Part shown: positions 2,666 through 21,841 of the stretch, piece by piece
Layout: the number at the start of each line of letters is the position of its first letter
Numbering within the stretch: the stretch's first letter is position 1
Assembly (NCBI RefSeq): GCF_000018105.1
Contig: NC_009926.1
Coordinates: 180,001 to 212,000, forward strand
DNA: 32,000 nt
Source: Acaryochloris marina MBIC11017
GTDB taxonomy: Bacteria; Cyanobacteriota; Cyanobacteriia; Thermosynechococcales; Thermosynechococcaceae
Reading direction: 5' to 3'
Program-made: the position numbers and the translations under genes
The notes under the pieces: model-generated
The model's database searches: none
The model's input: the letters and a program-made list of their open reading frames with translations, nothing else
What the model was told of the DNA's origin: nothing

Positions 2666-3289
2666 ATGAGCCTCTTGCCTGGATTTACAGCCGGATTGTT
2701 ACTAATTACGCTTTCAGAATTGGGTGACAAAACTTTTTTTATCGGTGCCATTCTAGCGATGCGTCACCCACGACGCTGGGTTTATGGGGGAGTAACCGTC
2801 GCTCTGGCTACAATGACGGCCTTGTCGGTCTGGATTGGGCAGGTAGCAACAGTCTTTCCTCAGCAGTATGTTAAAGGAATATCGGTGGTCTTGTTTCTTG
2901 GCTTTGGCCTCAAGCTGCTCAACGACGCGATGCGAATGTCCGGCAATGAGAGGATGATTCATGAGCAAGCTGATGCATTAGAGGCTATCCAATGTCGGGA
3001 GCAGGGCGTTACTGCTTGTCCAGGCAGAGCGGTATGGATGGAAGCGTTTACTTTGACCTTTGTGGCGGAGTGGGGGGATCGGACCCAGGTCGCGACGATT
3101 ACTTTAGCAACCGCCCAAAATCCTTATGGTGTCTTTTTGGGAGCTGTTTTGGGTCATGCTATTTGTGCCGCAATTGCAGTCGTCTGTGGAAAATTGATTG
3201 CCGGACAGATTTCAGAGCGTTTACTCACTGCCATAGGTGGTGTTTTATTTCTGATATTCGGCATCGTCGTTATCCAGCAGATGACCTGA
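2666..3289 (+). CDS. UPF0016 (GDT1/TMEM165/Mnx-type) membrane cation (Mn2+/Ca2+) transporter
   Basis: 207 aa and hydrophobic throughout. It has two copies of the family signature E-x-G-D-[KR]-T (ELGDKT, EWGDRT), each at the start of a 3-TM repeat. Confidence 0.9.
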   Translation: MSLLPGFTAGLLLITLSELGDKTFFIGAILAMRHPRRWVYGGVTVALATMTALSVWIGQVATVFPQQYVKGISVVLFLGFGLKLLNDAMRMSGNERMIHEQADALEAIQCREQGVTACPGRAVWMEAFTLTFVAEWGDRTQVATITLATAQNPYGVFLGAVLGHAICAAIAVVCGKLIAGQISERLLTAIGGVLFLIFGIVVIQQMT

Positions 3290-3543
3290 TCCGCAACGCT
3301 GAGGGATACTGAGAATGAGAATTCCTTAAATTCAAAACCGTAATTTTTTGTTCGAATGACCCCGCTGGTCCTACTTAGTAAAACGCGGCAATAATGGAGA
3401 ATAAGTCTTAAAGCAACCCCGATCGCTGCCAAAATCCATGGCAATTACAAGATCCAGCGTTGTTGGAAGATCAATCGGCTGATGGCCGGAGATGGGGGAG
3501 CAGCTGTCTCTATCTGCACAGGTACACCCAACTGTTTTGTCGC

Positions 3544-6952: not shown

Positions 6953-8386
6953 ATGTCACTTCATCTGCAAGCTCAATATGTTGTACCAGCTGAAACTAAC
7001 AAAATTGCTCATGCCGTTTTCCCAAAAGGAAACCTATGCATTACGATGGCCAATGCACTGAGTGACTTTCTTAGCGATCAGGATTTCAAAGATTTCTTTG
7101 GGGTTCGGGGGTAACCAGCTGAATCCCCTTGGCGACTTGCGTTAGTGAGTATCCTACAGTTTCTCGAAGGCTTAACGGACCGCCAGGCTGCTGATGCGGT
7201 ACGCAGTCGCATCGACTGGAAGTACCTACTGTGCTTGGACTTGAGTGATGTGGGCTTTAACCACTCTGTGCTCAGTGAATTCCGAACCCGCTTAGTTACA
7301 GCAGGAGTCGAATCTCTTATCTTTGAAAAGCTCCTACAGTTTTGCCAGGAACGAGGGTGGCTAAAACCTCGCAGTCGCCAACGAACGGACTCAACCCATG
7401 TATTGGCTGCTATTCGCGCAGTGACTCGCCTAGAGTGTGCTGGAGAAACATTACGAGCGGCATTAAATGCCTTGGCTGTCGCCGCTCCTGATTGGCTGAT
7501 CGCCCATAGCCAACCAGAGTGGGCAGACCGCTACAGTGAGCGAATTGAAGATAATCACCTGCCCAAGTCCAAAAGCCAGAGAATCAAGCAAGCAGAACTC
7601 TACGGGAAAGACGGGCTAGAGCTGCTAAATGCAGTGCTTGCTGGCAACAGCCCAAGGTGGTTACGTCAAATTCTGGCAGTGGAAATTTTGCGAAAAGTCT
7701 GGGTTCAACAATACTACTGCTGTGAGCTCAGCATCATCTGGCGCACACAACAAGAAGCCCCTCCTGCCTCAGTGATGATTAGTTCTCCTTACGAACCTGA
7801 TGCCCATTATGCTAAGAAACACACAACTTCCTGGGTAGGCTACAAAGCCCATTTGAGTGAGACCTGTGAACCGGGCGAACTACACCTGATTACGAATGTT
7901 GAAACAACAGCAGCACCAGTTGATGGGGATATGACGGACTCTATTCATACTTCACTTGCGAACAACACATTGCTCTCCAGCAAACACATTGTTGATACTG
8001 GCTATCTTGATGTTGAACTTTTAGTCACCGCCCAAGAGCAATATCAGGTCGATTTACTGGGGCCAACCCGAACCAACCTTCGGTGGCAGGCGAAGGAAGC
8101 CAAAGGATTTGCAGCTGACGACTTTAAGGTAAATTGGCAAAACCAATCACTGACTTGTCCTGAAGGAAAATCGAGTGTCTCTTGGACACCTGCTATTGAT
8201 GGTCGAAACAATGAGGTGGTCAAGATTAAATTTGCCGCTTCTGATTGCTCGGTTTTTCCAAGCCTACATATATGCACTCGCAGTCAACGACAGCGTCGGG
8301 CAGTGACCCTTCGCCCGGAAGCACAGTACAAGGCACTACAGCAGGCTCGACAACGAGAACCAACGTCTGAATATCAACAAGATTGA
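6953..8386 (+). pseudogene. IS5/IS1182-family transposase with an in-frame TAA, 3'-truncated
   Basis: ATG 6953: MSLHLQAQYVVPAETNKIAHAVFPKGNLCITMANALSDFLSDQDFKDFFGVRG-TAA(7112..7114)-PAESPWRLALVSILQFLEGLTDRQAADAVRSRIDWKYLL... (InsH_N/DUF772-type N-terminus). The conserved C-terminal block expected after ...LQQARQREPTSEY is absent. The stop at 8384..8386 lies inside the palindrome 8383..8423. Confidence 0.8.
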
Positions 8387-8423
8387 TCCACTCCCACCGC
8401 TAAAGCAGGTGGGAGTGGATCAA
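8383..8423. repeat. Perfect 16-bp-arm palindrome related to the tnpB right-end stem-loop
   Basis: TTGATCCACTCCCACC-GCTAAAGCA-GGTGGGAGTGGATCAA. The first 32 nt match 591..622 with one mismatch. It sits at the junction between the truncated IS5/IS1182 gene and the 305-bp leader of the 577-aa TnpB-like gene. Confidence 0.7.
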
Positions 8424-8728
8424 TGCTATTGTGACCGGAGTCAAGGACTCTTTTACTTGGGGATAGTGGGACAAACTCCACTAAGAGAGAAGGCTCTCCA
8501 CTCATTGGGGAGATTGATTAATCCCCAAACATTTGACTTGCTACATCGCGCTGCTATTGGAAAGCCTATACGATAGTGTGAGTAGATTTATTCAACTTCA
8601 TCTAATTGAGCTTTTCAAGGCTGGGCTACTTAATAAATATTTCTTATAGGTATTGGAAAAATATGTCTGGGACCCTGATTAGATATTGCTCTCAGGGATC
8701 TTGAGACACAAATTTGTGAGAGAGGTTC

Positions 8729-10462
8729 ATGAAAACGATAGAATTTCCACTTTATCTAGACTCCTCCCAGCAGGTAAAAGTTACTGATTGGATGGACATA
8801 CTCAAACATGTTTACAATCGCGGCATTGCTCTTCTTGAGTGGAGGCAGTTTTACAACCGACTACAAAAAGTGAGAGAGGTTGACCCAGAATACAATATCC
8901 CGGTTCAACTAAACGTCAACCGGTTAGGGGGAGAGTGGTCTATGTCCTGTGAATGCAGGATAAAGACTCGTCTCGACAAGAGCAAATCCTGGGACGAAGC
9001 GAATATCGAACATCGGCCTGCTTGTACTCTCGTCAAGCCCCACTGGCTCACTGTGCCTCTAATAGCTGGTTTTAGCCCTGTAGACTTGCGTAAGTCTTTT
9101 GCCCGCAAACGCTACAAAAACTTGGGGGATATACCCCAAGTCTACGTTAACGACTTTATTGGCCTAGTGGTCTTCAAAGCTTGGGCGAACTACTTAGACC
9201 AAACTCGACCTGAAATTAAACGACCTCGTTATAAAGGAAAGTATGCGCGTGTCAATACAATTCCGTGTGAATCCTTCCGTTCTCTAGTTAAAATCGATTT
9301 TGCGACTGATCATCTGCAACTTCCAGGGTTAGGTTGGATTAGTGTTCCTGCCCTTTCTACCCGATTGAAGAGTGTGATGGATAGACAGCGGTTACATATG
9401 GAGCAGCATCCTGACCATTACCCTGAACTAGCAAAGAAGCTGATTGAAAGGAATGCATTGTTAAGGGTGGCTCACTGGTTAGAACAAGGTGTGCCGATGC
9501 CCGAGGAAGTTTTTGGGGATATTAAAAAAGCTATAAAACACGCTGAACATGCTATCGAAAAAACTGGCAACGTCTCATTCGCAATTACAAAGTTACGAGA
9601 GTTGGCCATTAAGCGTGAGTTAAATCAGGCAATTAATGACCTATGCACTCCTGGGGTATTTAGGATTTGCCGGAAGGCGGATAAATTTTACCTACAAATC
9701 ACGGTGCGCTCAGTTGTCAATCAAGGCAATCCTAGACCAGAACCCATTGGTTTGGATATGGGATTGAATCTGCTATGTCACACAACCAATGGAGTGAAAG
9801 TCAAACATCCAGACTTATCGCAGTTGACCAACAAGATCAATCGTCTAAAGCAGAAGCAATCAAAGATGAAACTAGGCTCTCAGAACTGGCATCGAATCCA
9901 GAAGAAAATTAGCTTAGCTGAGCAAAGGAAAACAAGAGCAAAGAGGAGCAGACAGCACTATATTGCAGGTTGGTTAGTGGATGCCAATCAGAACATGGCG
10001 ATAAAAAAATTCAGTCATAAAGATGTTGTTGCTCGACCATTACCGCGACCAAGTAAGAAGACTGAGCAATATTTGAAGAATGGAAGAGAAGAACAGCGGA
10101 TCATTAATAATCAAGTCAGAGAAGCTGCTTTAGGCCAGTTTACTAGTTTTATCCAGTTAAAAGCTGCTGATAGAGAGAATCACGTGATAGAATTCATAGA
10201 GTGTGACTCTAGTGCCACACCAAATGAAATTTTGGAAACATCAAGTTTCCACTCCGGTGGTCCACAATCGGAGAAAGCCCAAAACCTACAACGGACACGG
10301 GAAGGTGGGAGGGTAACCACCACCACGCGAGAGGAAAGTGAAAGCAACTCCTCAACAACACGTAGATTGAAGCAAGCCCCCTTGCTTGTAAATCCAGCCC
10401 AAAGCCCCAAGCCTTTCAAGCGTTTACGGCGTATGCCACAAGCAGAACGCAAAGTTCTATAG
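8729..10462 (+). CDS. TnpB/Cas12-like protein, REC-expanded, apparently nuclease-dead (RuvC-I only)
   Basis: SD GAGAGAGG lies 5 nt upstream. TnpB-type N-terminus IEFPLYLDSSQQ...VYNRGIALL; WED strands RPRYKGKYARVNTIPC...LQLPGLGWISV; RuvC-I IGLDMGLN (Asp343). The RuvC-II position reads MAIKKF instead of I-x-x-E-[DN]-L. There is no CxxC zinc ribbon and no D-R-D. The last ~85 aa are a Ser/Thr/Arg/Pro-rich tail. This 1.7-kb ORF is uninterrupted, whereas the neighbouring IS genes are broken. Confidence 0.65.
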   Translation: MKTIEFPLYLDSSQQVKVTDWMDILKHVYNRGIALLEWRQFYNRLQKVREVDPEYNIPVQLNVNRLGGEWSMSCECRIKTRLDKSKSWDEANIEHRPACTLVKPHWLTVPLIAGFSPVDLRKSFARKRYKNLGDIPQVYVNDFIGLVVFKAWANYLDQTRPEIKRPRYKGKYARVNTIPCESFRSLVKIDFATDHLQLPGLGWISVPALSTRLKSVMDRQRLHMEQHPDHYPELAKKLIERNALLRVAHWLEQGVPMPEEVFGDIKKAIKHAEHAIEKTGNVSFAITKLRELAIKRELNQAINDLCTPGVFRICRKADKFYLQITVRSVVNQGNPRPEPIGLDMGLNLLCHTTNGVKVKHPDLSQLTNKINRLKQKQSKMKLGSQNWHRIQKKISLAEQRKTRAKRSRQHYIAGWLVDANQNMAIKKFSHKDVVARPLPRPSKKTEQYLKNGREEQRIINNQVREAALGQFTSFIQLKAADRENHVIEFIECDSSATPNEILETSSFHSGGPQSEKAQNLQRTREGGRVTTTTREESESNSSTTRRLKQAPLLVNPAQSPKPFKRLRRMPQAERKVL

Positions 10463-10528
10463 TTGCTTACTTCCTGATTTGTTCGTGGACAAGTCATTTC
10501 CAGTACCTGTGAAGACCAAATCACGTGA

Positions 10529-11254
10529 TTAGAGTGAGCTGGTGTTTCGCATCGGCTCTCCTTTGAGGGTGACTCAAATAGAATCAGGAACAATCCGGTC
10601 AAGAATAGCGTCATCTAGAGTCGGTTCATCAATCTTTTGATGCCATTGGGATTGGGTTGCAAACAAACAGGAGGCTCGTCGGTACCGCTCATCTAGGAAG
10701 TCGAGTATTTCTCTCGCATCATGGGTACTGAGAGGGTCTCTCAACCATTCATCCAAAACCACCAACTCAAAGGCTGCTAGTTGTTTGCGCAGTTTCAGGA
10801 ATGAGCAATCCACTTTGGCCATCTTGAGTTGACCAATCAACTCTGCCGTTTTGAAATAGCGCACTCTCACTCCCTGTCTACACAGGTGTTCTGAAAGGAC
10901 GCAACTGAGAAAGGTTTTACCCACGCCCGTCGGTCCGATGATCATCTTGAGATGCTTGGTCAACCATTGCCCTTGCGCCCATTGGAGAAAGTGAGCCTTC
11001 TGTAACCCCCGCTTGACCTGAAAATCGACATCATCCAGGGCTGCATTCGTAAACAACTGAGCCTGTTTGAGCCGCCGTGCATACGCTGATTTTGTCGCCT
11101 GAGATATTCACTCTCGACCAGGAGGGCCAAGCGTTCATCAAAAGAGAGATCTTGATAAGTGGGTTGGGCTTGTTGCTGTTGCCATACCTCCAGCAAGCCA
11201 TTGAGCAGGAGACTTTGGAGTTGTAGGGCAAGCGCTTTGGCGTAGAGCCTTCAT
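10529..11254 (-). pseudogene. istB: IS21-family IstB helper ATPase, multiply disrupted
   Basis: ...LSFDERLALLVESEYLRRQNQR, a frameshift (~11085), then ...LFTNAALDDVDFQVKRGL...IIGPTGVGKTFLS (Walker A)...LVVLDEW (Walker B)...AILDRIVPDSI-TGA(10574..10576)-VTLKGEPMRNTSSL-TAA. There is a further frame problem near the ATG at 11254. No istA is present upstream. Confidence 0.8.
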
Positions 11255-11927: not shown

Positions 11928-12228
11928 GACCTACCTCTGAGGGACAACCGCAAAAATATCCCCTCATGTCAATCACCTGCGGAATGTAGGCTAGATTTTG
12001 AATCGAAATGGCATACTGCATATCCAATCTAGGTTTCAAGGAAATCTTAAGTCGAACTAATCTACTAACCAAGTGAATATTTTGTGCATATACAAAATGG
12101 CAGTAAATCGCAGTTTCGTTTGTTTGGGGCCAACCTCTGTCTAAGCTTAACTGGCCCAATTGGCACCGAACTTTATTTTGAGGAACTCGAACAACAAATG
12201 CTGACAGATAACTTATACAAATAAATTG

Positions 12229-12993
12229 ATGTTCTCTCCTTCCCCCAAATTGAATCACTGGATTAAAGCTATTACGGTTAGGTCCAACGCGGGTTTGAGG
12301 CTATTTTGCTTTCACTATGCTGGTGGAAATGCTTTTGTCTTTCGAAATTGGGCCAATCAGGTACTAGACGGGGTGGATGTGTATGCCGTTGAACTCCCAG
12401 GTCATGGTACACGACTGGCAGAACCGCCTTGCAATCGCATGGAATGCCTAATCCAAGACCTGAAAGCGGCTCTAATGCCTTATCTAAAACCACCTTTCGC
12501 CTTTTTTGGTCACAGCATGGGGGCATTGATCAGTTACGAATTAGCCCAGGCTCTGAGGAAAGAAGATTTGTCCCCGCTGCATCTGTTTGTATCAGGCTAT
12601 CGCGCCCCTCACGTTCCCGATGATGAGCCTCCGATTCACACCTTACCGACAGCCGATTTTCTCAATGCCCTACGTTGCTATAATGGCACCCCAGAAGCCA
12701 TTCTGCAAAACTCTGAGCTAATGGAACTTTTGCTGCCCACCCTCCGAGCCGACTTTGCGCTGCTGGAAGCCTATCAGTATCGGTCTCGTCCACTCTTGGA
12801 CTGCCCAATTACAGCGTTTGGAGGTGCAGAAGACTGGAAAGCCTCCGCAGAAGAGATCAAAGCCTGGCGTAGCCATACCCAATCCAAATTTTTGTTCTAC
12901 CGATTTCCTGGCGATCATTTTTTCGTCCATTCAGCTCAATCCTCGCTGCTGCAGGTACTCAATGCAGCGTTGCAAGATTTAGTCGGAGTATGA
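12229..12993 (+). CDS. Type II thioesterase (PchC/YbtT-like editing TE)
   Basis: RLFCFHYAGGNAFVFRNW...VELPGHGTR...FFGHSMGALISYELA (GxSxG)...FPGDHFF (catalytic His region). 254 aa, counting from the ATG at 12229; the track starts 3 nt earlier at TTG. Confidence 0.9.
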   Translation: MFSPSPKLNHWIKAITVRSNAGLRLFCFHYAGGNAFVFRNWANQVLDGVDVYAVELPGHGTRLAEPPCNRMECLIQDLKAALMPYLKPPFAFFGHSMGALISYELAQALRKEDLSPLHLFVSGYRAPHVPDDEPPIHTLPTADFLNALRCYNGTPEAILQNSELMELLLPTLRADFALLEAYQYRSRPLLDCPITAFGGAEDWKASAEEIKAWRSHTQSKFLFYRFPGDHFFVHSAQSSLLQVLNAALQDLVGV

Positions 12994-13265
12994 CAATGCC
13001 TCAATCGAGAAAGTCTCGACCAGCAAGGGATTCATCAATAGAGGCCCCGTTATAACGAGTAACTCAGGGCTGTTTCAAGTTCCTAAGAGGAAACCTGAAA
13101 CTACTATTCTTGCGGGGTATTAACTTAAGCCGGGCAACCTTATCCCTCAAGGATCTTAAATTAGTGATTTCATAGCCTAAACTGCCGGATGTTCCAGCGT
13201 TTTTTAGCTTGCAGTCATCTCTCTAAGTGTCTCGGTTTATGCTGGTAGACCAATATTTTTCATTT

Positions 13266-13378
13266 GAGTCTCTTCATTGTGACCGCTCAATGGGGATCAC
13301 AATGAAGAGACTCTGCACTGAAAGTACAGAGGTTATTTATCGACTGAAAGTCCGATTCTTCTCAGGACTAAAGTCCTG
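13266..13378. repeat. Hairpin cluster at the 3' (right) end of IS200-type element copy 2
   Basis: A 17-bp perfect inverted repeat GAGTCTCTTCATTGTGA/TCACAATGAAGAGACTC (13266..13282 / 13297..13313). It is followed by three small hairpins with a common loop core: CTCTGCAC-TGAAA-GTACAGAG (13311..13331), TCGAC-TGAAA-GTCCGA (13340..13355) and CAGGAC-TAAA-GTCCTG (13363..13378). The cluster ends at the tnpA stop. Confidence 0.7.
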
Positions 13379-13757
13379 ATTCACTCCAGCATCAACGTAT
13401 CTACATCGTTATTGGACACGGGACGGTGATGCTCCAAATATTCTTCTACCATTTGCTCACTGATATTGCCCTTACTCCAGGCACCATAGCCTATCGACCA
13501 CAAATTTTTCTCCCAATATCGCTTCTCTAACTCTTGATACTCCTGCGGAAGACATCTTGATGTTCGTCCTTTCAAACGCTTCACTATGTCACCGATCGAT
13601 TTGATGAGGATATTCAATCAGCATGTGGACATGATCTTTACTGATCACGCCTTTTTGTATGCGGATATCCTCTGCATCGCATATCTGGATGAGCAACTCA
13701 CGGCATCAGTTTTGCACTTCACCTTTGGGCACCTGATAACGATACTTGGTAACCCAT

Positions 13758-14940
13758 CTGAGATGTTGCACCAAGGGTCCTGACTATGAGAAAAGGGCGT
13801 GCAGTTATATAGAAACAAGCATGCCAAAACACATCCTTGCCCACGCCCAAGGGCTAGTCTACACCTTGCTCCATCTGATGCCGAGCCCCTATCAGCAAGA
13901 GACCTTACAAGCCTTATTGGAGTTGTTTTTAGAAGCAACCGGTCAATCTTTACCCGCTCACAGCAAAGTGAAATCCGCCAGTGCCATCAGTCGATTTCTC
14001 AATCAGTATCAATGGCCCACTCGCCAAGTGATTCGTGCGGTACGTCAAGCAGCCATTGAACGACTATTGAAGGTCAGGATGCCAGGACGTCAGCCCTACT
14101 TACAAGTGATTCTAGACCTAACTACCCTAGAGAAAACAGGCAAGTTCAAAGCCATGCCGGGTTTGATACGGGTGTATCACGGCAAACGAGGACTGCATCT
14201 GGTCGTGATGTATCTAGTCGTGGGGAAATGGCGTATACCTTGGAACTTTAGGGTCTATCGAGGGAAAGACACGCCTTCTCCTGCTCAATTGGGACTACAG
14301 TTGCTTCGGCGATTACCCCATTCCTTAAAGGAGCGATTTCAGATATTGGTGCTAGCCGATACAGCCTTTGGCAGCATTGAATTTTTAGAAGGAACGAAAC
14401 ACCTGGAATATTCCACTATCGTTGGTGTTCGTAAAGACCGAAAACAGCAAGCGGGTGGACCCATTTCTCAACTATCTCATCGGGGACAGCAGGCGCGCTT
14501 GGTCGGTTTGAGTTTTCCGGTTTGGGTGTCTTGGTTTTGGCTGAAACGAGAGAATGGCAAACGAGAACTTCGGTATGTGCTTTCCACAAAGCCTTTGAAG
14601 GGTAGCACGATTACCAGATGGGGGAGACGACGATGGCAAATTGAAGGATGGTTCAAGACAGCCAAGCATCGGTTTAGCTTAGATCGGTTTGCCCAAGGGA
14701 CACTGACGGGAGTGTATCGATGGTTGGTATTGTCGATGATTGCCTATTTGTTAGCTCATTGGGCCTATCTCACCACTGCTAGGTCAAGGTTACCGGAATG
14801 GGGGCAAGCTGCTCGACTAGCGATGGAGTTATGGTTCCCCCATCTACTGGTGATGACGTTGATTGCGGATGTCGAACAACTCAGACCTCGCATGCAGCAA
14901 CTGGGGCTGGACCTCCATTTATCTTGGTGCAAGATATGAG
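13758..14940 (+). mobile_element. IS4/IS701-like insertion sequence, 1183 bp, 4-bp target-site duplication CCAT
   Basis: The uninterrupted copy-1 sequence GGTGACCCATACAACATG (2194..2211) shows the empty site. Here CCAT (13754..13757) and CCAT (14941..14944) flank the insert. Terminal inverted repeats are CTGAGATGTTGCACCAAG / CTCATATCTTGCACCAAG (15 of 18 identical). Confidence 0.85.
13821..14939 (+). CDS. IS4/IS701-like DDE transposase (intact)
   Basis: MPKHILAHAQGLVY...VILDLTTLEK (D)...LVLADTAFGS (D)...RWGRRRWQIEGWFKTAKH (the Y-x-x-R-x-x-x-E-x-x-x-K-type E block). The start was chosen at the first ATG, 13821. The stop lies 1 nt inside the right IR. Confidence 0.8.
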   Translation: MPKHILAHAQGLVYTLLHLMPSPYQQETLQALLELFLEATGQSLPAHSKVKSASAISRFLNQYQWPTRQVIRAVRQAAIERLLKVRMPGRQPYLQVILDLTTLEKTGKFKAMPGLIRVYHGKRGLHLVVMYLVVGKWRIPWNFRVYRGKDTPSPAQLGLQLLRRLPHSLKERFQILVLADTAFGSIEFLEGTKHLEYSTIVGVRKDRKQQAGGPISQLSHRGQQARLVGLSFPVWVSWFWLKRENGKRELRYVLSTKPLKGSTITRWGRRRWQIEGWFKTAKHRFSLDRFAQGTLTGVYRWLVLSMIAYLLAHWAYLTTARSRLPEWGQAARLAMELWFPHLLVMTLIADVEQLRPRMQQLGLDLHLSWCKI

Positions 14941-15316
14941 CCATACAACATGAACAGTTAAGCGGGTGACGGTATGATTCCCACGAAGATTCTCGACCAT
15001 AGACTTCTGGATGCTGCTGCTCTATCCTGCATAAGAGCTGTATAGCAATTAAAGTCTCGCACTGAAAGTGCGTAGTTTCGGACTAGCGTGTTTAGGATAA
15101 TGAAGAGACTCTTTCTTAGACTCCTGGAATTATCAAACTCTGCAAGTCCTCTGGCTTTGCCAGAGATTTACCAGGAATTAATTAGGTTGATTGGGTAGTA
15201 ACCTTTTCAGCCTCAAAATACTTCCTATTCAAACAGATCGGTTGGTTATTGTAATAAGTCTAGTGTATAACTTAACTTAATAAGAATGACTTGCAATTAA
15301 CTGGAGTGCATTTGCA

Positions 15317-16396
15317 ATGACAGTGAGCATTTCTTCGCCCTGTGACACGTATACGCTGACTTCAGCAGAATTGATTGAGTTACTTCAACAGGCTCAAAAA
15401 GAGGGTGAATCAATCTTCTGGGAAACAGAGCTGCATGAGCAATTCAATCTTCCTAAAGTATTGGGAGATGGGGGTGATCGCGTCATTAAGCTACGAGGTG
15501 GGTTAACTCTTCATATTCGTAATGCAACTCTGCACCAAAATCTTCGAATGGTGCAGCAGCACACCTCCCAGTTTCCCTTAACAGCAAAGTTTTATCTATC
15601 GGGATCTTCTAGGGTTCAAACCCGCGGTTTTTCAGGCATTCAAGCTGAATATGAAGAACGAGCCAATAGTCACTATCTCTACTACCTGCCGGATATGATC
15701 GAAGTCGAAGAATGGCAGGCCAAAGAGCCTACGCAAATCGTCATGGTTTATGCAGAAACGGACTATTTTCATGCATTTCAGTGGGCGGATAGTACTCTAC
15801 CAGAACCATTACAGTTTCTCAAACAAGCGAGCTTGAAACCAGTTGCCGATCTACGATTTCACCAAAACCTTGGCAATGTTACCCCAGCTATGTATCAGGT
15901 GCTCCAGCAAATTCTTCACTGTCCGTATCATGGCGTGATAGAGCAGCTTTATCTTGAAAGCAAAGCGTTAGAACTTTTGACCCTACAGTTTGCCCATTGG
16001 CAAGCGAATGGAGTCATTTCTGAGCAAAAGCTGACTAAAAAGGTGCTACTGCGCTCAGAAGATTTAGGGCGACTTCATCATGCCAAAGAAATTCTAATTG
16101 AACGGTTAGTTGAGCCTCCATCACTTGTAAAATTGGCTCGCGAGGTGGGGCTGAACGATCGCAAGCTCAAACAGGGTTTTCGTCAACTGTTTGGGACAAC
16201 TGTCTTTGGGTACTTGCAAGACTACCGGATGCAGCAGGCTAAGCAGTTACTCCATGACTCAGACTTATCGATCGCTTGGGTTGCCAAAACTGTAGGCTAC
16301 AAAAATCCAGAGGCTTTCAGTACGGCCTTCCGACGAAAATTTGACATCAGCCCCAAAGGATATCAGTTAAGCCAACGAAATTATATGCACGGTTGA
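15317..16396 (+). CDS. AraC/XylS-family transcriptional regulator, PchR/YbtA-like
   Basis: C-terminal double HTH: LVKLAREVGLNDRKLKQGFRQLFGTTVFGYLQDYRMQQAKQLL...IAWVAKTVGYKNPEAFSTAFRRKFDISPKGY. The N-terminal ~200 aa are paralogous to the partial gene at 1..505. Confidence 0.9.
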   Translation: MTVSISSPCDTYTLTSAELIELLQQAQKEGESIFWETELHEQFNLPKVLGDGGDRVIKLRGGLTLHIRNATLHQNLRMVQQHTSQFPLTAKFYLSGSSRVQTRGFSGIQAEYEERANSHYLYYLPDMIEVEEWQAKEPTQIVMVYAETDYFHAFQWADSTLPEPLQFLKQASLKPVADLRFHQNLGNVTPAMYQVLQQILHCPYHGVIEQLYLESKALELLTLQFAHWQANGVISEQKLTKKVLLRSEDLGRLHHAKEILIERLVEPPSLVKLAREVGLNDRKLKQGFRQLFGTTVFGYLQDYRMQQAKQLLHDSDLSIAWVAKTVGYKNPEAFSTAFRRKFDISPKGYQLSQRNYMHG

Positions 16397-16421
16397 AGGT
16401 GTAAGCTCGGTGTCTTCGCAG

Positions 16422-16460
16422 AAAGTCCGGTTGGCAAAGGAAAAAGTCCGGCTTGCAAAG
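16422..16460 (+). promoter_or_regulatory. Two 18-nt direct repeats with 21-nt phasing (candidate AraC/PchR-type operator)
   Basis: AAAGTCCGGTTGGCAAAG (16422..16439) and AAAGTCCGGCTTGCAAAG (16443..16460), 16 of 18 identical. A third half-site TTGCAAAG lies at 16488..16495. They sit between the araC stop and the assembly-line operon. Confidence 0.35.
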
Positions 16461-16502
16461 AAAAGCCAAGCGTCTGTCCCCTATGATTTGCAAAGAAGTA
16501 TT

Positions 16503-16517
16503 TGAGAATTATTCTTA
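16503..16517. promoter_or_regulatory. Fur-box-like 7-1-7 dyad upstream of the NRPS-PKS operon
   Basis: TGAGAATTATTCTTA is identical to the reverse complement of 530..544, and the flanks are also similar (TGAGAATTATTCTTAYTTRC). It lies 138 nt upstream of ATG 16655. Confidence 0.45.
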
Positions 16518-16654
16518 TTTGCTTTGCTGCCACCGAAAAGATGTGAGGAAGTTGCTCTATTCGCTACAGGGTTAGCAATGGGCAACGCTCCTCATTGCTA
16601 GCTCCTTTTGAACCACATGATGTTCATCCCGCTGCTCTACGTTGGAGTCGTCGT

Positions 16655-18205
16655 ATGACGAATCAAGCCGTTGGTATCCGTTCCCTTGCCGTAAAGTTTC
16701 CGAGTGTAATTCACACTCCAGAAGCTTGGGGTGAGGCATTTCCTGAGTTGGCAGCTCAGGCCCAGGCAAGAGTCCGGTTGCCGAGAAAACCTCAACCTGG
16801 CATTGATCAGGATGCGGAATCGGACTTGGCGACTTGGTCACAGGAAGTTGCACCTTATCTCAGCGATCCGTTTCGCGGCAATGTCGAGCGACGCAGGTTG
16901 GCAGTGCAGGAGTCGCCGCGAGCGATCGAATGTCAGGCTGCTCAGGATGCCATAGCGGCGGCAGGTCTTCAGCCTGATGATATTGAGTTGATGATTGCCA
17001 GTACGCTCTTTTCAGAATCGATGGGCATAGGTAATGCCCCAGCTTTGGCTCAGCAATTGGGGTTGCGCTGTCCTGCCTGGACGCTGGAATCGACCTGCTC
17101 CAGTGCATTGGTCGCCCTGCAAACGGTGCGATCGCTAGTGCAGGCTGGCGAGTATCGCACTGTGCTCGTCATCGTTTCCCACTTTGGATCGCGAGTTGTA
17201 GATCCGGCTGATACTCTGTCGTGGGCGATGGGAGATGGTGCAGGGTCGTTCATCGTTACGGCACAGCCCGATCAGCAGGGGGTTCTCGCGACTCATGTGA
17301 TGAGTACCACTGACACCTGTGGCGCATATGCCTACGAATTTGTAACCAACGATCAGGGAATGCCCCAACTGCGAATGCGTACTGGCGAGAGTGCGGGGGC
17401 GATCGCTGAAACAGCCGTTGCCAGTGTCCGCACTTGCTGCGAAAGTGCTGCGGCAAAAGCAGGGATTAGTCTGGATCAAATTAGCCTGTTTGCGTTCAAC
17501 ACGCCGACGGCTTGGTATGCCAGCGTCTGCACCCGCGCCTTAGCCATCCCGCCGGAACGAGTGATGAATCTCTATCCGCGTTACGCCAATATTGGCCCGG
17601 TGCTGGCAGTGGCCAATCTGTATCATGCGGCTGAGTCCGGTCGGTTATACCAAGATGATTTGGTGCTGGTCTACACCCACGGGGCTGGTGCAACAGCCGC
17701 GGCAACAGTAATGCGTTGGGGCGAGGTGGCGCTGGGGCCAAAACCCACTGCCCCCAGCCGCGTTACGCCAGAGCAGGAAACAGTGCGACTGGCTTCATCG
17801 TTAACGTCTCTGCCCGTTACCGCATCAGACATGGAAACGGTGGCACCCATACTTACGTTGTCTAGGGCGATGGTGCAGGCGGCGGTGTCAAAAGACCGAC
17901 TGCAACTGGTAGAAACCTATCTGCTGGACTGGATCAGGCGATCTCTCCCGGCTCTGGCACCATCGCTCAGCCCTGATCAGCCATTGGCGACAGTGTTGGA
18001 TTCGCTGATGGGGCTCACGTTCAAAAGCCAGATTGAAGTGGATCTTCAGGTGCGAGTGCCAATGGAGCAGTTCTTCGGCGAACACACGATCGCCCACCTC
18101 GCAGAATACATCTTAAATCAGCTAGAACTGTCGGTCTTACGGGCGTTGCCGTCTGATCCTCACGCTGAGACCTGTGCTGACAGCCGAGAAACCTTACGTT
18201 TGTGA
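16655..18205 (+). CDS. KASIII (FabH)-like enzyme fused to a C-terminal carrier-protein domain (putative starter/loading protein)
   Basis: Thiolase-fold motifs: LESTCSSALVAL (Cys148, nt 17096..17098), FAFNTPTAW where FabH has PHQAN, and RYANIGPV (Asn). The C-terminal ~90 aa have a phosphopantetheine site: LATVLDSLMGLTFKSQIEVDL (Ser at 18002..18004). The start was taken at ATG 16655 rather than the track TTG at 16595. Confidence 0.8.
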   Translation: MTNQAVGIRSLAVKFPSVIHTPEAWGEAFPELAAQAQARVRLPRKPQPGIDQDAESDLATWSQEVAPYLSDPFRGNVERRRLAVQESPRAIECQAAQDAIAAAGLQPDDIELMIASTLFSESMGIGNAPALAQQLGLRCPAWTLESTCSSALVALQTVRSLVQAGEYRTVLVIVSHFGSRVVDPADTLSWAMGDGAGSFIVTAQPDQQGVLATHVMSTTDTCGAYAYEFVTNDQGMPQLRMRTGESAGAIAETAVASVRTCCESAAAKAGISLDQISLFAFNTPTAWYASVCTRALAIPPERVMNLYPRYANIGPVLAVANLYHAAESGRLYQDDLVLVYTHGAGATAAATVMRWGEVALGPKPTAPSRVTPEQETVRLASSLTSLPVTASDMETVAPILTLSRAMVQAAVSKDRLQLVETYLLDWIRRSLPALAPSLSPDQPLATVLDSLMGLTFKSQIEVDLQVRVPMEQFFGEHTIAHLAEYILNQLELSVLRALPSDPHAETCADSRETLRL

Positions 18206-18212
18206 TTGTGAT

Positions 18213-21200
18213 ATGGAGCTACATTCGCTACTCACCACACTTTCAAAGCAAGGCATCAAGCTTTCAACTTGTGAAGGTTTGCTGGAAGTCGATGCGCCGC
18301 AAGGAGTGATGACTTCAGACTTGCGTCATGCCTTGAGTCAGCATAAGGCTGAGATTGTACGGTTGCTCAATCAACTGCCGGCGGCGGGGGAGGTAAATGG
18401 CTCTGCGACAGAACTGCCGACGTTGGTGTCTGATCCCAGCCAGCGCTATGCACCCTTTCCCCTGACCGACATGCAGTACGCCTTTTGGGTCGGTCGTAGC
18501 GGGGTGCTGGAACTGGGAACGGTAGCAAATCACGGTTATTACGAGATCGATGGACAAAACATAGAGCTAGAGCGGCTGAATCAGGCACTGCAAATTCTGA
18601 TCGATCGCCATGATATGCTGCGAGCGATTATTCTGCCGGATGGACGGCAACAGGTGCTGGAAACGCTGCCGCCCTACCAGATGCCCCTGGTTGACCTGCG
18701 GGGCCAGAGCGATGATGCGGTTCACAGCGCCTTAGCAGAAATTCGCGATCGCTTGTCCCATCAGGTTGTGCCCGCTGACCAGTGGCCGCTGTTTGAGTTT
18801 TCCGCCACGCAGTTGGATGGGGGACGGGTGCGGCTGCATATTAGCTACGATTTGCAGGTGTTTGATGCCTGGAGTCTGTTTCGACTGTTTGATGAATGGG
18901 TGCAACTCTACAAAACGCCGGATGTACCATTGCCACCGCTGGAGCTGACCTTTCGGGACTATGTGCTGGCCGAGCAGGCGTTACAGAAAACGGAGCTGTA
19001 TCTGAGATCGCAAACCTACTGGCTAAATCGGCTCGACAGCCTGCCTCCTGCCCCCGACCTGCCGTTAGCTCGACATCCCAAGGAGCTGAAGCAGCATCGT
19101 GCCCATCGCCATGAAGATCACCTCCAGCGCAGCGACTGGCAGCAGCTCAAACAGCGGGCAATGCAGGCTGGGATCACTCCATCCGGGCTGTTGCTAGCTG
19201 CCTTTGCTGATGTCATCTCTCTGTGGAGTCAGAGTCCTCGGTTCACGATTAATCTGGCCCTATTTAATCGCTTACCTCTGCATCCCCAGGTGAACGATCT
19301 GCTGGGAGACTTTACGTCAGTCACGCTTCTGGCGGTTGATCAGTCTGTCCCTGCTTCCTTTACCGAGCGAGCCGCGCGGCTACAGCAGCAGCTCTGGCAA
19401 GACTTAGAACACCGCTACTTCAGTGGAGTGCGAGTGGTACGAGAGTTGGCGCGACGACGGGGGACAGCCCCCAGCGTTATGCCGATTATCTTCACCAGCA
19501 CCCTGGGCTTTCGCTCCTTGGGACAGGAAACCCTCACCTTCAGCCACTTTGGTGAGCGGGTTTATGGCATCAGTCAGGCATCACAAGCCTGGATGGATAT
19601 GCAGGTCTGGGAAGAGAACGAAGAACTGACCTTTAATTGGGATGTGGTGGATGGCCTGTTTCCAGACGGGCTGATTGACGATATGTTTTCCGCATATGGA
19701 CGATGGCTGCGGCACCTGGCTCGCTCAGCATCTAGTTGGACAGAATCGGGGCAACCATTGAAGCGATCCTCCTACGGAGGGGTTTCACGAACGCTCCTAC
19801 CTCCGGACCAACAAACGCAGCGAGCGTTGATGAACGCAACTGATGCTCCCATTTCAGACGCGCTGCTGCACGAACTCTTCGCGACTCAGGTACGCCTGCG
19901 ACCCCAGGCTCCGGCAGTAATTACCTTGCAGCAGACGCTGACCTATCAGGATCTCTTCGCCCGCGCCAATCAGCTTGAATATCACTTGCGTCAGATGGGG
20001 GTGACTCCTAATCAACTGGTAGCAATCGCAATGGACAAGGGTTGGGAGCAGGTGGTAGCTGTCATGGGTGTGCTGATGGCTGGAGCTGCCTACGTTCCCC
20101 TCGATCCGCACTTACCACAGAGCCGATTGGAGGCTCTTTTGGACAACAGCGAGGCGGCCATCGTCCTCACCCAAACTCGCTGGCTAGAACAGCAAGTTTG
20201 GCCGGATAGGGTTCACTGCCTATGTGTCGATGATTGGAGCCGTGACGGTTCTGATTTTGGATTTTCGATCTTAGATTTTCGATCTAAATCAGATGGTGTT
20301 GATGTTAATTTTGATTTGGCGCAGGTAGATCAATCAAAGCAATCGGAGCACCTGGAACCGCTGTCCTCAGTGCAAACGGCTGATGATCTGGCCTATGTGA
20401 TTTATACCTCTGGATCGACGGGCACGCCCAAAGGGGTGATGATCAGCCATCGTAATGTGGTCAACGTGATCACCCATACTAATCAGCGTTTTCAGGTGGG
20501 GGAACAGGATCGGATGCTGGCGCTGACCGCACTCAACCATGACCTGTCGGTTTACGACATCTTTGGTCTGCTCAGTGCTGGGGGGGCGATTGTGATGCCG
20601 GATGTCGAAGCGGTGAAAGATCCGAGCCACTGGCTAACCCTGATGGCTCGCGAACGGGTGACGCTGTGGAACTCGGTGCCTGCCTTTATGGAGATGCTGA
20701 TCGATGAGGCCGAAGCCCAGGCAATCAATCCCCTAGATTCTCTACGGTTGACGATTTTAGGGGGAGATTGGTTACCGTTGTCGCTGCCAGATCGGCTGCG
20801 GGCGATCGCTCCCAATACCCAAATTTTCAGCATTGGCGGGCCGACAGAGACAACCATTTGGAATATTGGCTATCTGATCGATACCGTTGATCCCAACTGG
20901 GCGAGCATCCCGTATGGACAGCCGTTAGCGAATTCCAAGTACTATATCTTGAACGAAATCCTAGAGGACTGCCCGATCTGGGTGCCAGGGCAGATGTATT
21001 GCGCTGGGGTGCAGCTTGCCAAGGGTTACTGGCGGGATAAGGAAAAGACAAATCACCAATTTATCACGCATCCGTATACTGGCGAACGGCTTTACGCCAC
21101 AGGGGATTTAGGCCGCTATCGCCCCAATGGCACCATAGAAATCTTGGGTCGTATTGATTTCCAAATTAAGCTGCGGGGGCTGCGAATCGAAGCGGGTGAA

Positions 21201-21824
21201 GTTGAAGCCGCACTGCTCCAGCATCCAGCCGTGCAAGCGGCAGTGGTAGGCGGCATCGGCGATCACCATCCAGAACGGCTAGTGGCCTATGTGGTGCCCC
21301 AGTCCACCGCTCCCTCGCTGGAGGAACTGCGGGATTTTCTGGCTCAGAAGCTCCCCTCTCACATGGTGCCCTCGGCGTTTGTCTTCCTAGAGACACTGCC
21401 GCTGTCTGCCAATGGCAAAGTCGATCGTAAAGCCCTACAAGCGCAAGCGATCTCCGTTCAGTCTGTAAATACGGCCTATGTAGCTCCGCAAAATCAATTG
21501 GAAACCGCGATCTCAACTATTTTTCAAACCATTCTAGACATCCCAAACGTGGGGATTCACGACAATTTCTTTGACCTGGGGGGCAATTCGTTGCTGCTAG
21601 CCAAGGTGTATCGGGCCCTGGTGGAGGAGTTGCCTGAAGAAACGCGGTCGATTTCGCTGATTGATCTATTCCGCTATTCCTCTGTGCAGGCGATCGCTCA
21701 GCGGCTGAGCCAGACAACGCCTGACCTTGAACTAGAAAGCCAGATGGTGTCCAGAAATCAACAGTTAGCACAGGGGAAAAATCGTCTAAAAACCCGCTTG
21801 GAAAAGTCAAGAAATCTCCGGTAG
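18213..21824 (+). CDS. NRPS module: TubC-type N-terminal docking - Cy (heterocyclization) - A (Cys-like) - PCP
   Basis: Dock LLTTLSKQGIKLSTCEGLLEVDAP...HKAEIVRLL. Cy: FPLTDMQYAFWVGR, with DLQVFD (DxxxxD) in place of HHxxxDG. A: LAYVIYTSGSTGTPKG, HDLSVYD, WNSVPA, GGPTETTIW, YATGDLGRY, KLRGLRIE. PCP: FFDLGGNSLL. Start at ATG 18213, 7 nt after the upstream stop. Confidence 0.9.
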   Translation: MELHSLLTTLSKQGIKLSTCEGLLEVDAPQGVMTSDLRHALSQHKAEIVRLLNQLPAAGEVNGSATELPTLVSDPSQRYAPFPLTDMQYAFWVGRSGVLELGTVANHGYYEIDGQNIELERLNQALQILIDRHDMLRAIILPDGRQQVLETLPPYQMPLVDLRGQSDDAVHSALAEIRDRLSHQVVPADQWPLFEFSATQLDGGRVRLHISYDLQVFDAWSLFRLFDEWVQLYKTPDVPLPPLELTFRDYVLAEQALQKTELYLRSQTYWLNRLDSLPPAPDLPLARHPKELKQHRAHRHEDHLQRSDWQQLKQRAMQAGITPSGLLLAAFADVISLWSQSPRFTINLALFNRLPLHPQVNDLLGDFTSVTLLAVDQSVPASFTERAARLQQQLWQDLEHRYFSGVRVVRELARRRGTAPSVMPIIFTSTLGFRSLGQETLTFSHFGERVYGISQASQAWMDMQVWEENEELTFNWDVVDGLFPDGLIDDMFSAYGRWLRHLARSASSWTESGQPLKRSSYGGVSRTLLPPDQQTQRALMNATDAPISDALLHELFATQVRLRPQAPAVITLQQTLTYQDLFARANQLEYHLRQMGVTPNQLVAIAMDKGWEQVVAVMGVLMAGAAYVPLDPHLPQSRLEALLDNSEAAIVLTQTRWLEQQVWPDRVHCLCVDDWSRDGSDFGFSILDFRSKSDGVDVNFDLAQVDQSKQSEHLEPLSSVQTADDLAYVIYTSGSTGTPKGVMISHRNVVNVITHTNQRFQVGEQDRMLALTALNHDLSVYDIFGLLSAGGAIVMPDVEAVKDPSHWLTLMARERVTLWNSVPAFMEMLIDEAEAQAINPLDSLRLTILGGDWLPLSLPDRLRAIAPNTQIFSIGGPTETTIWNIGYLIDTVDPNWASIPYGQPLANSKYYILNEILEDCPIWVPGQMYCAGVQLAKGYWRDKEKTNHQFITHPYTGERLYATGDLGRYRPNGTIEILGRIDFQIKLRGLRIEAGEVEAALLQHPAVQAAVVGGIGDHHPERLVAYVVPQSTAPSLEELRDFLAQKLPSHMVPSAFVFLETLPLSANGKVDRKALQAQAISVQSVNTAYVAPQNQLETAISTIFQTILDIPNVGIHDNFFDLGGNSLLLAKVYRALVEELPEETRSISLIDLFRYSSVQAIAQRLSQTTPDLELESQMVSRNQQLAQGKNRLKTRLEKSRNLR

Positions 21825-21841
21825 AGGTTAGCTAAACGGCA

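Follow-up and report, generated by a model that had tools for sequence, protein, structure and literature searches.

The gene considered here lies on a contig of Acaryochloris marina MBIC11017 (NC_009926.1, positions 180,001 to 212,000); this whole stretch of 32,000 nucleotides (nt) is called the window, and coordinates given without a locus name refer to it. The gene occupies 8729..10462 on the + strand and encodes a nuclease-dead Cas12 protein of 577 residues related to type V-U2 and Cas12p effectors. Its open reading frame (ORF) starts with ATG and is uninterrupted, and the call agrees with the orthologues, the profile matches and the ratio of nonsynonymous to synonymous substitution rates (dN/dS). 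A Shine-Dalgarno-like GAGAGG is read at 8720..8725 (+), 3 nt before the ATG, where the orthologues have GA(G/A)(A/G)GGAAC. An initial annotation, made from the letters of the window, had pointed out this clean frame with its good Shine-Dalgarno and had taken the product for a nuclease-dead relative of TnpB and Cas12. Both points are supported, and RNA-guided binding of DNA is what we infer from them.

The catalytic positions were located by pairwise and family alignments. The RuvC-I Asp is kept as Asp343 (IGLDMGL; codon 9755..9757, +), and the RuvC-II Glu position is occupied by Lys426 (MAIKKF; codon 10004..10006, +), which aligns opposite IAVEDL of a TnpB-type nuclease; family alignments agree, as had been read from the single sequence. 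Frame translations, alignments and profiles, together with an AlphaFold2 (AF2) model, also bore out that the zinc ribbon and RuvC-III are missing and that a tail of about 85 residues stands in their place (residues 491–577; 10199..10459, +), ending in the basic motif KPFKRLRRMPQAERK. No CxxC pair or D-x-N-A-A-x-N motif was found in the three forward frames between 9900 and 10900. Loss of the C-terminus by frameshift was rejected, as no zinc ribbon or RuvC-III is hidden in the three forward frames downstream of residue 390. The matches to the PADLOC Cas12u2 and NCBIfam C2c8 profiles both end short of the part that holds these elements. The AF2 model, built from a 128-sequence alignment, reached a predicted local distance difference test (pLDDT) score of 91 and a predicted template modelling (pTM) score of 0.84, with disorder only at residues 512–548 of the tail (pLDDT < 50).

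The same model places five helices at residues 209–306 (9353..9646, +), between WED strands. A helical insertion of about 130 residues had been claimed; the helices exist, but the insertion measures about 95 residues against live relatives, that is, those that keep the catalytic residues. About 55 of these residues are specific to the Acaryochloris clade, and the insertion is shorter in the more distant homologues P0006–P0008 and missing in the live relative P0009. The accompanying description of the protein as "REC-expanded" is probably wrong. Flanked by WED strands and aligned to the part of Cas12p that holds the protospacer-adjacent motif (PAM)-interacting (PI) domain, the insertion is probably a PI-type domain rather than an expansion of REC.

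The losses are those of a family. An exhaustive profile search over 1.84 billion representatives gave 90 matches below 1e-30. Among the full-length matches, about 30 representatives (50% clustering) are without both CxxC pairs and RuvC-III, and they were found in Acaryochloris and in phage-like metagenomic contigs. A one-off truncation of the window gene was therefore rejected. The RuvC-II residue in these dead representatives is mostly K, Q or T, with Glu kept in a few shorter and more distant ones. The signature of the window protein, Asp kept together with Lys at RuvC-II (AVKK, AIKK, AVKR), is common to many of them; in other members Asp is also gone (A/S paired with Q/T). Lys occupies the RuvC-II column in 15 tabulated members, namely three Acaryochloris rows (P0001, P0002, P0004) and 12 more distant representatives, tabulated in the family alignment as P0012–14, P0016, P0019–23, P0013, P0159 and P0160. 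The live relatives P0009, P0018 and that of contig L018, as well as the V-U2 effector gp061 of cyanophage vB_AphaS-CL131 (CL131), keep D, E, the zinc ribbon and D-x-N-A-A-x-N. None of the outcomes that the initial annotation had listed as speaking against it came about. It had named the lack of suitable homologues as one of them; homologues exist, and they share the change from Glu to Lys and the missing zinc ribbon and RuvC-III.

A protein identical to that of the window is annotated in Acaryochloris marina, and three orthologues, also of 577 residues and with 75–78% identity, come from other Acaryochloris genomes or metagenomes. The P0006–P0008 group has the same architecture at 34% identity. 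Among 185,579 species-representative genomes only 1 locus was found, and the wider clade is known solely from metagenomes; an index-based protein search with the dead-clade profile added no members beyond the first search. The four Acaryochloris orthologues are co-linear with zero indels, and their dN/dS of 0.07–0.12 is not neutral. The gene is under purifying selection, and the maintenance by selection argued previously is supported. Pairs that include the window gene gave 0.11–0.12, and the other three orthologues among themselves 0.07–0.08. All invariant and near-invariant residues of a 25-member alignment are kept in the window protein, which has 7 derived changes at conserved sites versus 2–5 in the others, not a marked excess. 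The tail behaves differently from the core: in codons 491–577 dS was 0.27–0.46 versus 1.0–2.0 (3–5-fold lower), with a tail dN/dS of 0.2–0.5.

Hairpins at the end of the ORF had been flagged in the initial annotation, and a guide-RNA scaffold had been expected there. The two hairpins are real and conserved (10304–10324 and 10372–10389), and they form part of a conserved, co-varying RNA structure. Synonymous conservation, RNAalifold and pair counts delimit a predicted tracrRNA-like (trans-activating CRISPR RNA) scaffold at 10233..10389 (+). When codons with an amino acid conserved in all four orthologues were compared, 69% were nucleotide-identical in codons 491–577 vs. 29% in codons 1–490 (Fisher p = 2.6e-8). 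RNAalifold on the ORF 3' end, leader and first repeat of four orthologues gave a series of hairpins, all on the + strand: A (10233–10251), B (10252–10273), C (10278–10301), D (10304–10324, with a GUAA loop, the GGTGG...CCACC already flagged), E (10331–10353) and F (10372–10389). It also gave a long-range helix that joins the ORF segment 10356–10368 to the orthologues' repeat, some 280 nt further on, with compensatory changes AAG:CUU (L016, L011) vs. CAC:GUG (L007, L010). From this comparative pairing with the orthologues' repeat, CAACACGTAGATT at 10356..10368 (+) is the putative anti-repeat. Independent pair counts found 93.5% of cells paired, versus at most 36% with slid partners, with nine double-change pairs, and 0/500 shuffles reached this; in hairpin D, 5/8 pairs show compensatory changes.

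The loop of hairpin B, GGTCCACA (10259..10266, +), is the proposed pseudoknot partner of the repeat 3' end (UGGAC). It co-varies with that end: in Acaryochloris, GUCCA(C) faces (G)UGGAC, while the phage loci have GUGCU(G/A) facing U(G/A)GCAC, and the pairing ends exactly on the last base of the repeat. Pseudoknot geometry of this kind has been reported for the guide RNAs of TnpB and Cas12p. The co-variation of the ORF segment with the downstream repeat points to a tracrRNA embedded in the ORF. The low-complexity tail would then be largely the translation of scaffold-encoding DNA, which would explain its disorder, its dN/dS of 0.2–0.5 and a conserved TREG peptide (encoded by ACACGGGAAGG). The scaffold RNA of the window folds into the same hairpins as those of the orthologues (z = −2.2). 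No Rfam family was matched at 4 loci.

The core motif CCCAAAACC-N-GGACACGGGAAGG occurs in phage locus L017 at an equal offset from the stop codon, and is also present in L021, L022 and L023. A motif-based metagenome scan returned one locus, L020, in which hairpins A–D stand free at 800–905, with compensatory stem changes, in an intergenic region beside genes of helix-turn-helix (HTH) and toxin–antitoxin-like type. No Cas12-like ORF lies within 7 kb of this copy, which is either the remnant of a deletion or an RNA in its own right. A 7-sequence alignment that takes in L017 and L020 showed five helices with 95% pairing, and 11/26 pairs are compensatory, matched by 0/500 shuffles.

The repeats in question were found next to the orthologous genes. 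In L007, L011 and L016, the stop codon is followed by a conserved leader of about 150 nt and then by 2–3 direct repeats of 36–38 nt (GTGATYTRAGGYTTAGRRYCTGAAGYKTTGATGGAC) at 70–75-nt spacing. Counted per locus, and starting in all cases about 150 nt after the stop, there are 3 repeats in L007, at least 2 in L011, 2 in L016, 1 in L010 and 3 in phage locus L022. The earlier statement that there is no CRISPR array thus holds for the window, where no CRISPR repeat or further leader remnant was found anywhere in the 32 kb, but not for these five relatives. Among orthologous loci, identity is 66–78% in leaders, 69–92% in repeats and 44–49% in spacers, the last equal to that of shuffled sequence. Since the leaders are conserved and the spacers are at random level, the spacers have been replaced and have not simply drifted. 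Because relatives carry mini-arrays, the lineage is a CRISPR-associated type V derivative and not a stand-alone system of the TldR kind. The array of the live relative on viral contig L018 has 13 repeats, and that of CL131 has 11.

Five loci of the distant "D...K" subfamily (L017, L019, L021, L022 and L023) are on contigs whose other genes include phage hallmarks or phage-like ones, coding for terminase, Mu-type portal, prohead protease, lysozyme or tail-fibre-like proteins. L017 and L023 carry shorter or degenerate units ending in TTGGCAC. In L017, at least 14 TGGCAC copies at irregular 20–45-nt spacing lie at 7720–8150, 3' of the dead-Cas12 gene of this phage locus, whose ORF tail holds three GTGCCAA copies (7548–7610). 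The TGGCAC copies could represent an array that is degenerate or built of short units, or else iterons, TTTGGCAC being the 3' end of the genuine L022 repeat. Several HIP1 octamers (GCGATCGC) in the dead-clade phage contigs (L019 6573–6691, L022 8990–9045, L023 8990–9490) are consistent with cyanobacterial hosts.

Further observations concern individual relatives. In L010 (9457–11500), the N-terminus of the A. marina paralogue P0005 is cut by an IS630-type insertion whose HTH and DDE_3 genes abut it, and the leader and one repeat are kept; this is a second example of the erosion of a dead-Cas12 system by insertion sequences (IS) in Acaryochloris. In the P0006 locus (L009), the last ~50 nt of the ORF and ~45 nt downstream are duplicated 207 nt on (3200–3292 and 3407–3500), so that the repeat unit overlaps the ORF end, unlike the 36–38-nt repeats of the Acaryochloris loci. 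In L013 (1158–1799) and L014 (1153–1794), the start of the dead Cas12-like gene and a VRR_NUC nuclease gene have 17 nt in common. The overlap suggests translational coupling, and VRR_NUC could supply a nuclease in trans in this lineage. L017 (10014–11820) and L021 (10698–12447) each have a canonical IS607-type pair, serine resolvase and zinc-ribbon TnpB, about 2–3 kb away from their dead Cas12-like gene, so that a single phage genome holds TnpB-fold genes of both kinds, live and dead. In L018, the live Cas12 gene is preceded by four palindromic units (GGCCCCAC-N4-GTGGGGGTGGATC, 37-nt spacing) at 2954–3090. No conserved partner gene was detected by tblastx over 9 loci, which share only transposase fragments and the leader/array region.

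The window copy is set in IS debris. Alignments show a residual leader at 10463..10515 (+), with TTGCTTAC (10463–10470) as a degenerate version of the GTGCTTGCA box that the orthologues conserve. Homology with their leaders stops at about 10510–10517, some 50 nt past the stop. Beyond it, an IS21 IstB remnant of 160 residues (10574..11056, −; Pfam IstB_IS21, 2e-30, profile positions 61–219 of 238) belongs to the IS21 debris that occupies the place of the leader and mini-array of the orthologues. As leader and array are lost where this debris begins, the window copy is array-less: it is an effector and tracr unit without crRNAs (CRISPR RNAs) in cis, and either receives crRNAs from elsewhere or is a recently orphaned gene. 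Its predicted cognate repeat is ...ATCTRAAGTGTTGRTGGAC. On the other side, Pfam and the sequence identify an IS5/IS1182-type transposase ORF with truncated DDE domain, followed by a perfect 16-nt inverted repeat (together 7145..8423, +). The inverted repeat, TTGATCCACTCCCACC-N9-GGTGGGAGTGGATCAA (8383–8423), overlaps the stop codon of this ORF and is similar to the units of L018. Repeated IS DNA upstream reaches ~8603, where all short-read assemblies of the strain break. Past ~15 nt, the upstream DNA cannot be aligned with that of the orthologues, and the native upstream region has been replaced. A scan for promoters and terminators gave nothing beyond shuffled expectation.

The remaining neighbours do not form a conserved context. 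Nearby IS genes are broken, as had been noted before: ISAZ013 is split into two ORFs, IstB is reduced to 160 residues and DDE_Tnp_1_6 is truncated. A canonical TnpB C-terminal fragment at 631–1143, used previously for comparison, does carry the RuvC-II motif FFETLN, a CNHC/CPSC zinc ribbon and the RuvC-III motif DRDGNAANNI, but on the − strand and not on the implied + strand. A secondary-metabolite locus extends over 12226–28628 (type II thioesterase, AraC-type regulator, KAS III–ACP fusion and ORFs of 1216, 1665 and 601 residues) and is interrupted by an IS4-type transposase gene (13746–14939). This neighbourhood, which had been pointed out, is present but incidental, no neighbouring gene being conserved across loci.

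The relation to known effector classes was studied with profiles and structures. In Pfam, OrfB_IS605 scored 24.4 bits vs. a cut-off of 30.5, and the HTH_OrfB_IS605 match was also sub-threshold. In NCBIfam, guided_TnpB failed with 51.5 bits vs. 100. The best NCBIfam model, type V C2c8 (V-U2, NF038192), gave 138 bits vs. a cut-off of 350 and failed as well. In a test panel with this model, CL131 gp061 passed at 451 bits, live relatives scored 266–310 and dead-clade members 105–211. The best PADLOC match was Cas12u2 (E 5e-52). The Cas12k profile NF038191 gave zero matches to the window protein at E up to 10. With Foldseek against the Protein Data Bank, the top neighbour was Cas12p-TrxA (9jg3/9jfs; E 2e-13, template modelling (TM) score 0.49), followed by ISDra2 TnpB (TM 0.74 on target), ISFba1 TnpB, Cas12f and TranC. 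Much weaker were dCas12f (E 1.5e-4), Cas12m (E 1e-3) and Cas12k (E 2e-3 to 3e-2). The dead-clade profile matched Cas12p at 2.5e-16, in an alignment that spans profile positions 141–449 and lies outside the thioredoxin-binding (TB) region. A PxPxxxGxxYxxNGA insertion after RuvC-II is common to the dead clade and Cas12p, where Glu is kept (IAWEDT).

The explanation that we regard as probable is that the window gene encodes a crRNA:tracrRNA-guided DNA binder that is unable to cut, a dead descendant of a V-U2/Cas12p-like effector which is here orphaned from its array. Its ancestor would have been a CRISPR-associated effector of that kind, which lost the RuvC-II Glu, the zinc ribbon and RuvC-III and kept the WED, REC and RuvC-core fold and the PI-like insertion. 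The reading frame would continue through scaffold DNA, so that the last ~85 residues and the tracrRNA-like RNA come from the same DNA. In the complete system, found in other Acaryochloris and at least one phage-like contig with a mini-array of 1–3 repeats ~150 nt downstream, crRNAs would pair with the embedded scaffold through the anti-repeat and the loop pseudoknot. The ribonucleoprotein would then bind matching DNA and leave it uncut, acting as a roadblock, a repressor or a recruitment platform; RNA binding, DNA binding without cleavage and this biological role are what we infer from the structure, the arrays and the losses described above.

Several results weigh against this explanation. 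The RuvC-I Asp is kept, and residual chemistry is formally possible. Single-sequence complementarity between repeat and scaffold, by RNAduplex windows and an ungapped helix scan, was not above shuffled controls. The support for the anti-repeat is covariation in only 4 related sequences, and that for the pseudoknot comes from two sequence classes. In the window, 2 pairs of the scaffold are broken and the leader box is degenerate, compatible with early decay. L019 and L021 are without a clear array, a convergent gene abuts the stop in L019, and L021 and L009 are atypical. For 8 spacers, BLAST against their own contigs, the window, INPHARED phages and PLSDB plasmids found no protospacers.

A wider proposal, put forward tentatively and with the chances somewhat against it, is that the lineage is a separate, unclassified type V subtype whose C-terminal coding sequence doubles as the tracrRNA gene. 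Its main carriers would be cyanophage-like viruses and replicons of Acaryochloris, and its arrays of 1–3 spacers would silence, or recruit factors to, the DNA of hosts or rival elements.

The window copy could be a functionless relic of a real family, having lost its array and native promoter to IS activity and being intact solely because the loss was recent. The array and most of the leader are gone, with IS debris on both sides, two pairs of the scaffold no longer form, the GTGCTTGCA box has degenerated, dN/dS with the window is slightly above that among the other three orthologues, and the sister copy in another A. marina strain has already been cut by IS630. Nevertheless, 577 clean codons with zero indels and the retention of every invariant and near-invariant family residue, together with derived changes that are not in marked excess, make a relic rather unlikely; the higher dN fits the position of the window gene as outgroup of the four orthologues, and crRNAs are possibly supplied in trans. 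Cleavage of DNA might also persist, through Asp343, which is conserved jointly with Lys426 across subfamilies, and substitute residues, or through a recruited nuclease such as the VRR_NUC of L013 and L014, and Cas12p itself requires a host factor (TrxA) for activity. Since nothing is left of the zinc ribbon or of the strand and helix of RuvC-III, the sister group has lost the Asp too (A/S), and no nuclease partner is conserved across loci, this is considered very improbable.

The same low probability is given to a dedicated transcription factor of TldR type, with a fixed guide regulating a nearby operon such as the adjacent thioesterase/polyketide synthase–non-ribosomal peptide synthetase (PKS-NRPS) cluster. 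Like TldR, the protein derives from TnpB, is nuclease-dead and has a C-terminus that is truncated and disordered; the secondary-metabolite locus is 1.8 kb away, and the paralogous A. marina locus L010 is also near NRPS-type genes. These two neighbourhoods are, however, non-homologous and neighbouring genes are not conserved across loci, the CRISPR-type repeat–spacer units of the orthologues turn over instead of holding a single fixed guide, no spacer matches its own contig or the window, and TldR proteins have 300–350 residues compared with 577. A Cas12k-like targeting module for RNA-guided transposition would likewise be a dead, cyanobacterial type V effector with a short array, and Cas12p, the nearest solved relative, has a GTN PAM and PI layout in common with Cas12k. 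It is nonetheless hardly credible, as NF038191 gave no match, Cas12k structures are weak neighbours, and gene calls and Pfam marks, where available, showed no tnsB, tnsC or tniQ in the window or at the other loci (L011, L016, L018 and L019 were covered by ORF lists only).

If the RNA-guided, non-cutting binder is the right reading, the dead lineage would be a further independent loss of nuclease function, arising from V-U2. The dead Cas12 and TnpB derivatives Cas12k, Cas12m, TldR and dCas12f-sigma each showed a new use of RNA-guided DNA binding, and binding-only type V derivatives are a kind already known; what is apparently new is a zinc-ribbon-less dead V-U2-like clade with mini-arrays. In the literature searched, nothing was found on such a clade in Acaryochloris or phages, so that the lineage is apparently undescribed. 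Unusual in it are the very complete deletion of zinc ribbon and RuvC-III, the dual-coding ORF/tracrRNA segment, the mostly phage-borne distribution and the tiny arrays with spacer turnover. With a protein gene of ~1.7 kb and an RNA locus of ~0.4 kb, it is a compact system for studying programmable non-cutting binders of phages and cyanobacterial replicons, and possibly a candidate small scaffold for CRISPR interference (CRISPRi). Should the phage-borne subtype be real, it would amount to natural phage CRISPRi, with a logic like that of prophage TldR but programmed by CRISPR, with spacers turning over. What the window itself offers is less: one copy, intact but without an array, in a strain that can be cultured.

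Compared with named systems, TldR is an RNA-guided DNA binder that became nuclease-dead independently, and some members are phage-encoded. The window protein is, as TldR, a nuclease-dead protein of TnpB fold, in which the DED triad is disrupted and the C-terminus is cut short and disordered. TldR proteins are, however, compact (300–350 residues), non-CRISPR, equipped with one fixed short promoter guide, and limited to clades associated with fliC, csrA or oppF, and none of this holds here, with 577 residues and relatives whose repeat–spacer units turn over. Cas12k (V-K), Cas12m (V-M) and dCas12f-sigmaE, the last known in Bacteroidetes, are alike in being CRISPR-linked Cas12 proteins that bind DNA without cutting it, and Cas12k also in being cyanobacterial with short arrays; they belong to other lineages, and here there are no Tn7 genes, sigma factor or conserved partner gene nearby. 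With IS200/IS605 TnpB and its omega-RNA, the system shares the TnpB fold and a guide scaffold overlapping the 3' end of the gene. It differs in having its RNA in two parts, a tracr-like scaffold and the crRNA repeats, and in the absence of IS ends and TnpA; neither the window nor the orthologous loci have a tnpA or resolvase gene next to the Cas12-like gene. The protein is about 170 residues larger and dead: of the intact D-E-D triad and zinc ribbon of TnpB, it has the Asp, with Lys for Glu and the zinc ribbon and RuvC-III gone.

Cas12p ("Cas12 hacker") is a miniature nuclease of phages that depends on TrxA, works with a GTN PAM and has a PI domain as well as a tracrRNA pseudoknot. Among the structural neighbours it ranks first, and likenesses extend to the PxPxxxGxxYxxNGA motif, the inserted helical (PI) domain, phage carriage and a tracrRNA pseudoknot pairing with the 3' end of the repeat. 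Cas12p has, however, been described only as an active nuclease (IAWEDT, zinc ribbon), in contrast to the K, Q or T at RuvC-II of the dead clade, and sequence identity is only ~12%. V-U2 (C2c8/Cas12u2), represented by CL131 gp061, is in the literature only an uncharacterised subtype, to which, alone among the V-U subtypes, a 2024 review still gives no Cas12 letter name. It is the best profile match in two libraries and resembles the window lineage in the N-terminal motif NRGLALLEW, the domain order, the cyanobacterial and cyanophage habitat, and the locus order of gene, leader of 150–255 nt and 36–37-nt repeats. Unlike the window copy, which lacks both a nuclease-competent RuvC with zinc ribbon and an adjacent array, V-U2 keeps D, E, two CxxC pairs and RuvC-III, with arrays of 10–13 repeats; the window protein has the PI-like insertion and the 85-residue tail, and its relatives only 1–3 repeats. 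The features of the proposed dead lineage are all found in the window: a V-U2-like N-terminus, the loss of zinc ribbon and RuvC-III, a non-acidic residue at RuvC-II, and the scaffold of hairpins A–D within the last ~290 nt of the ORF.

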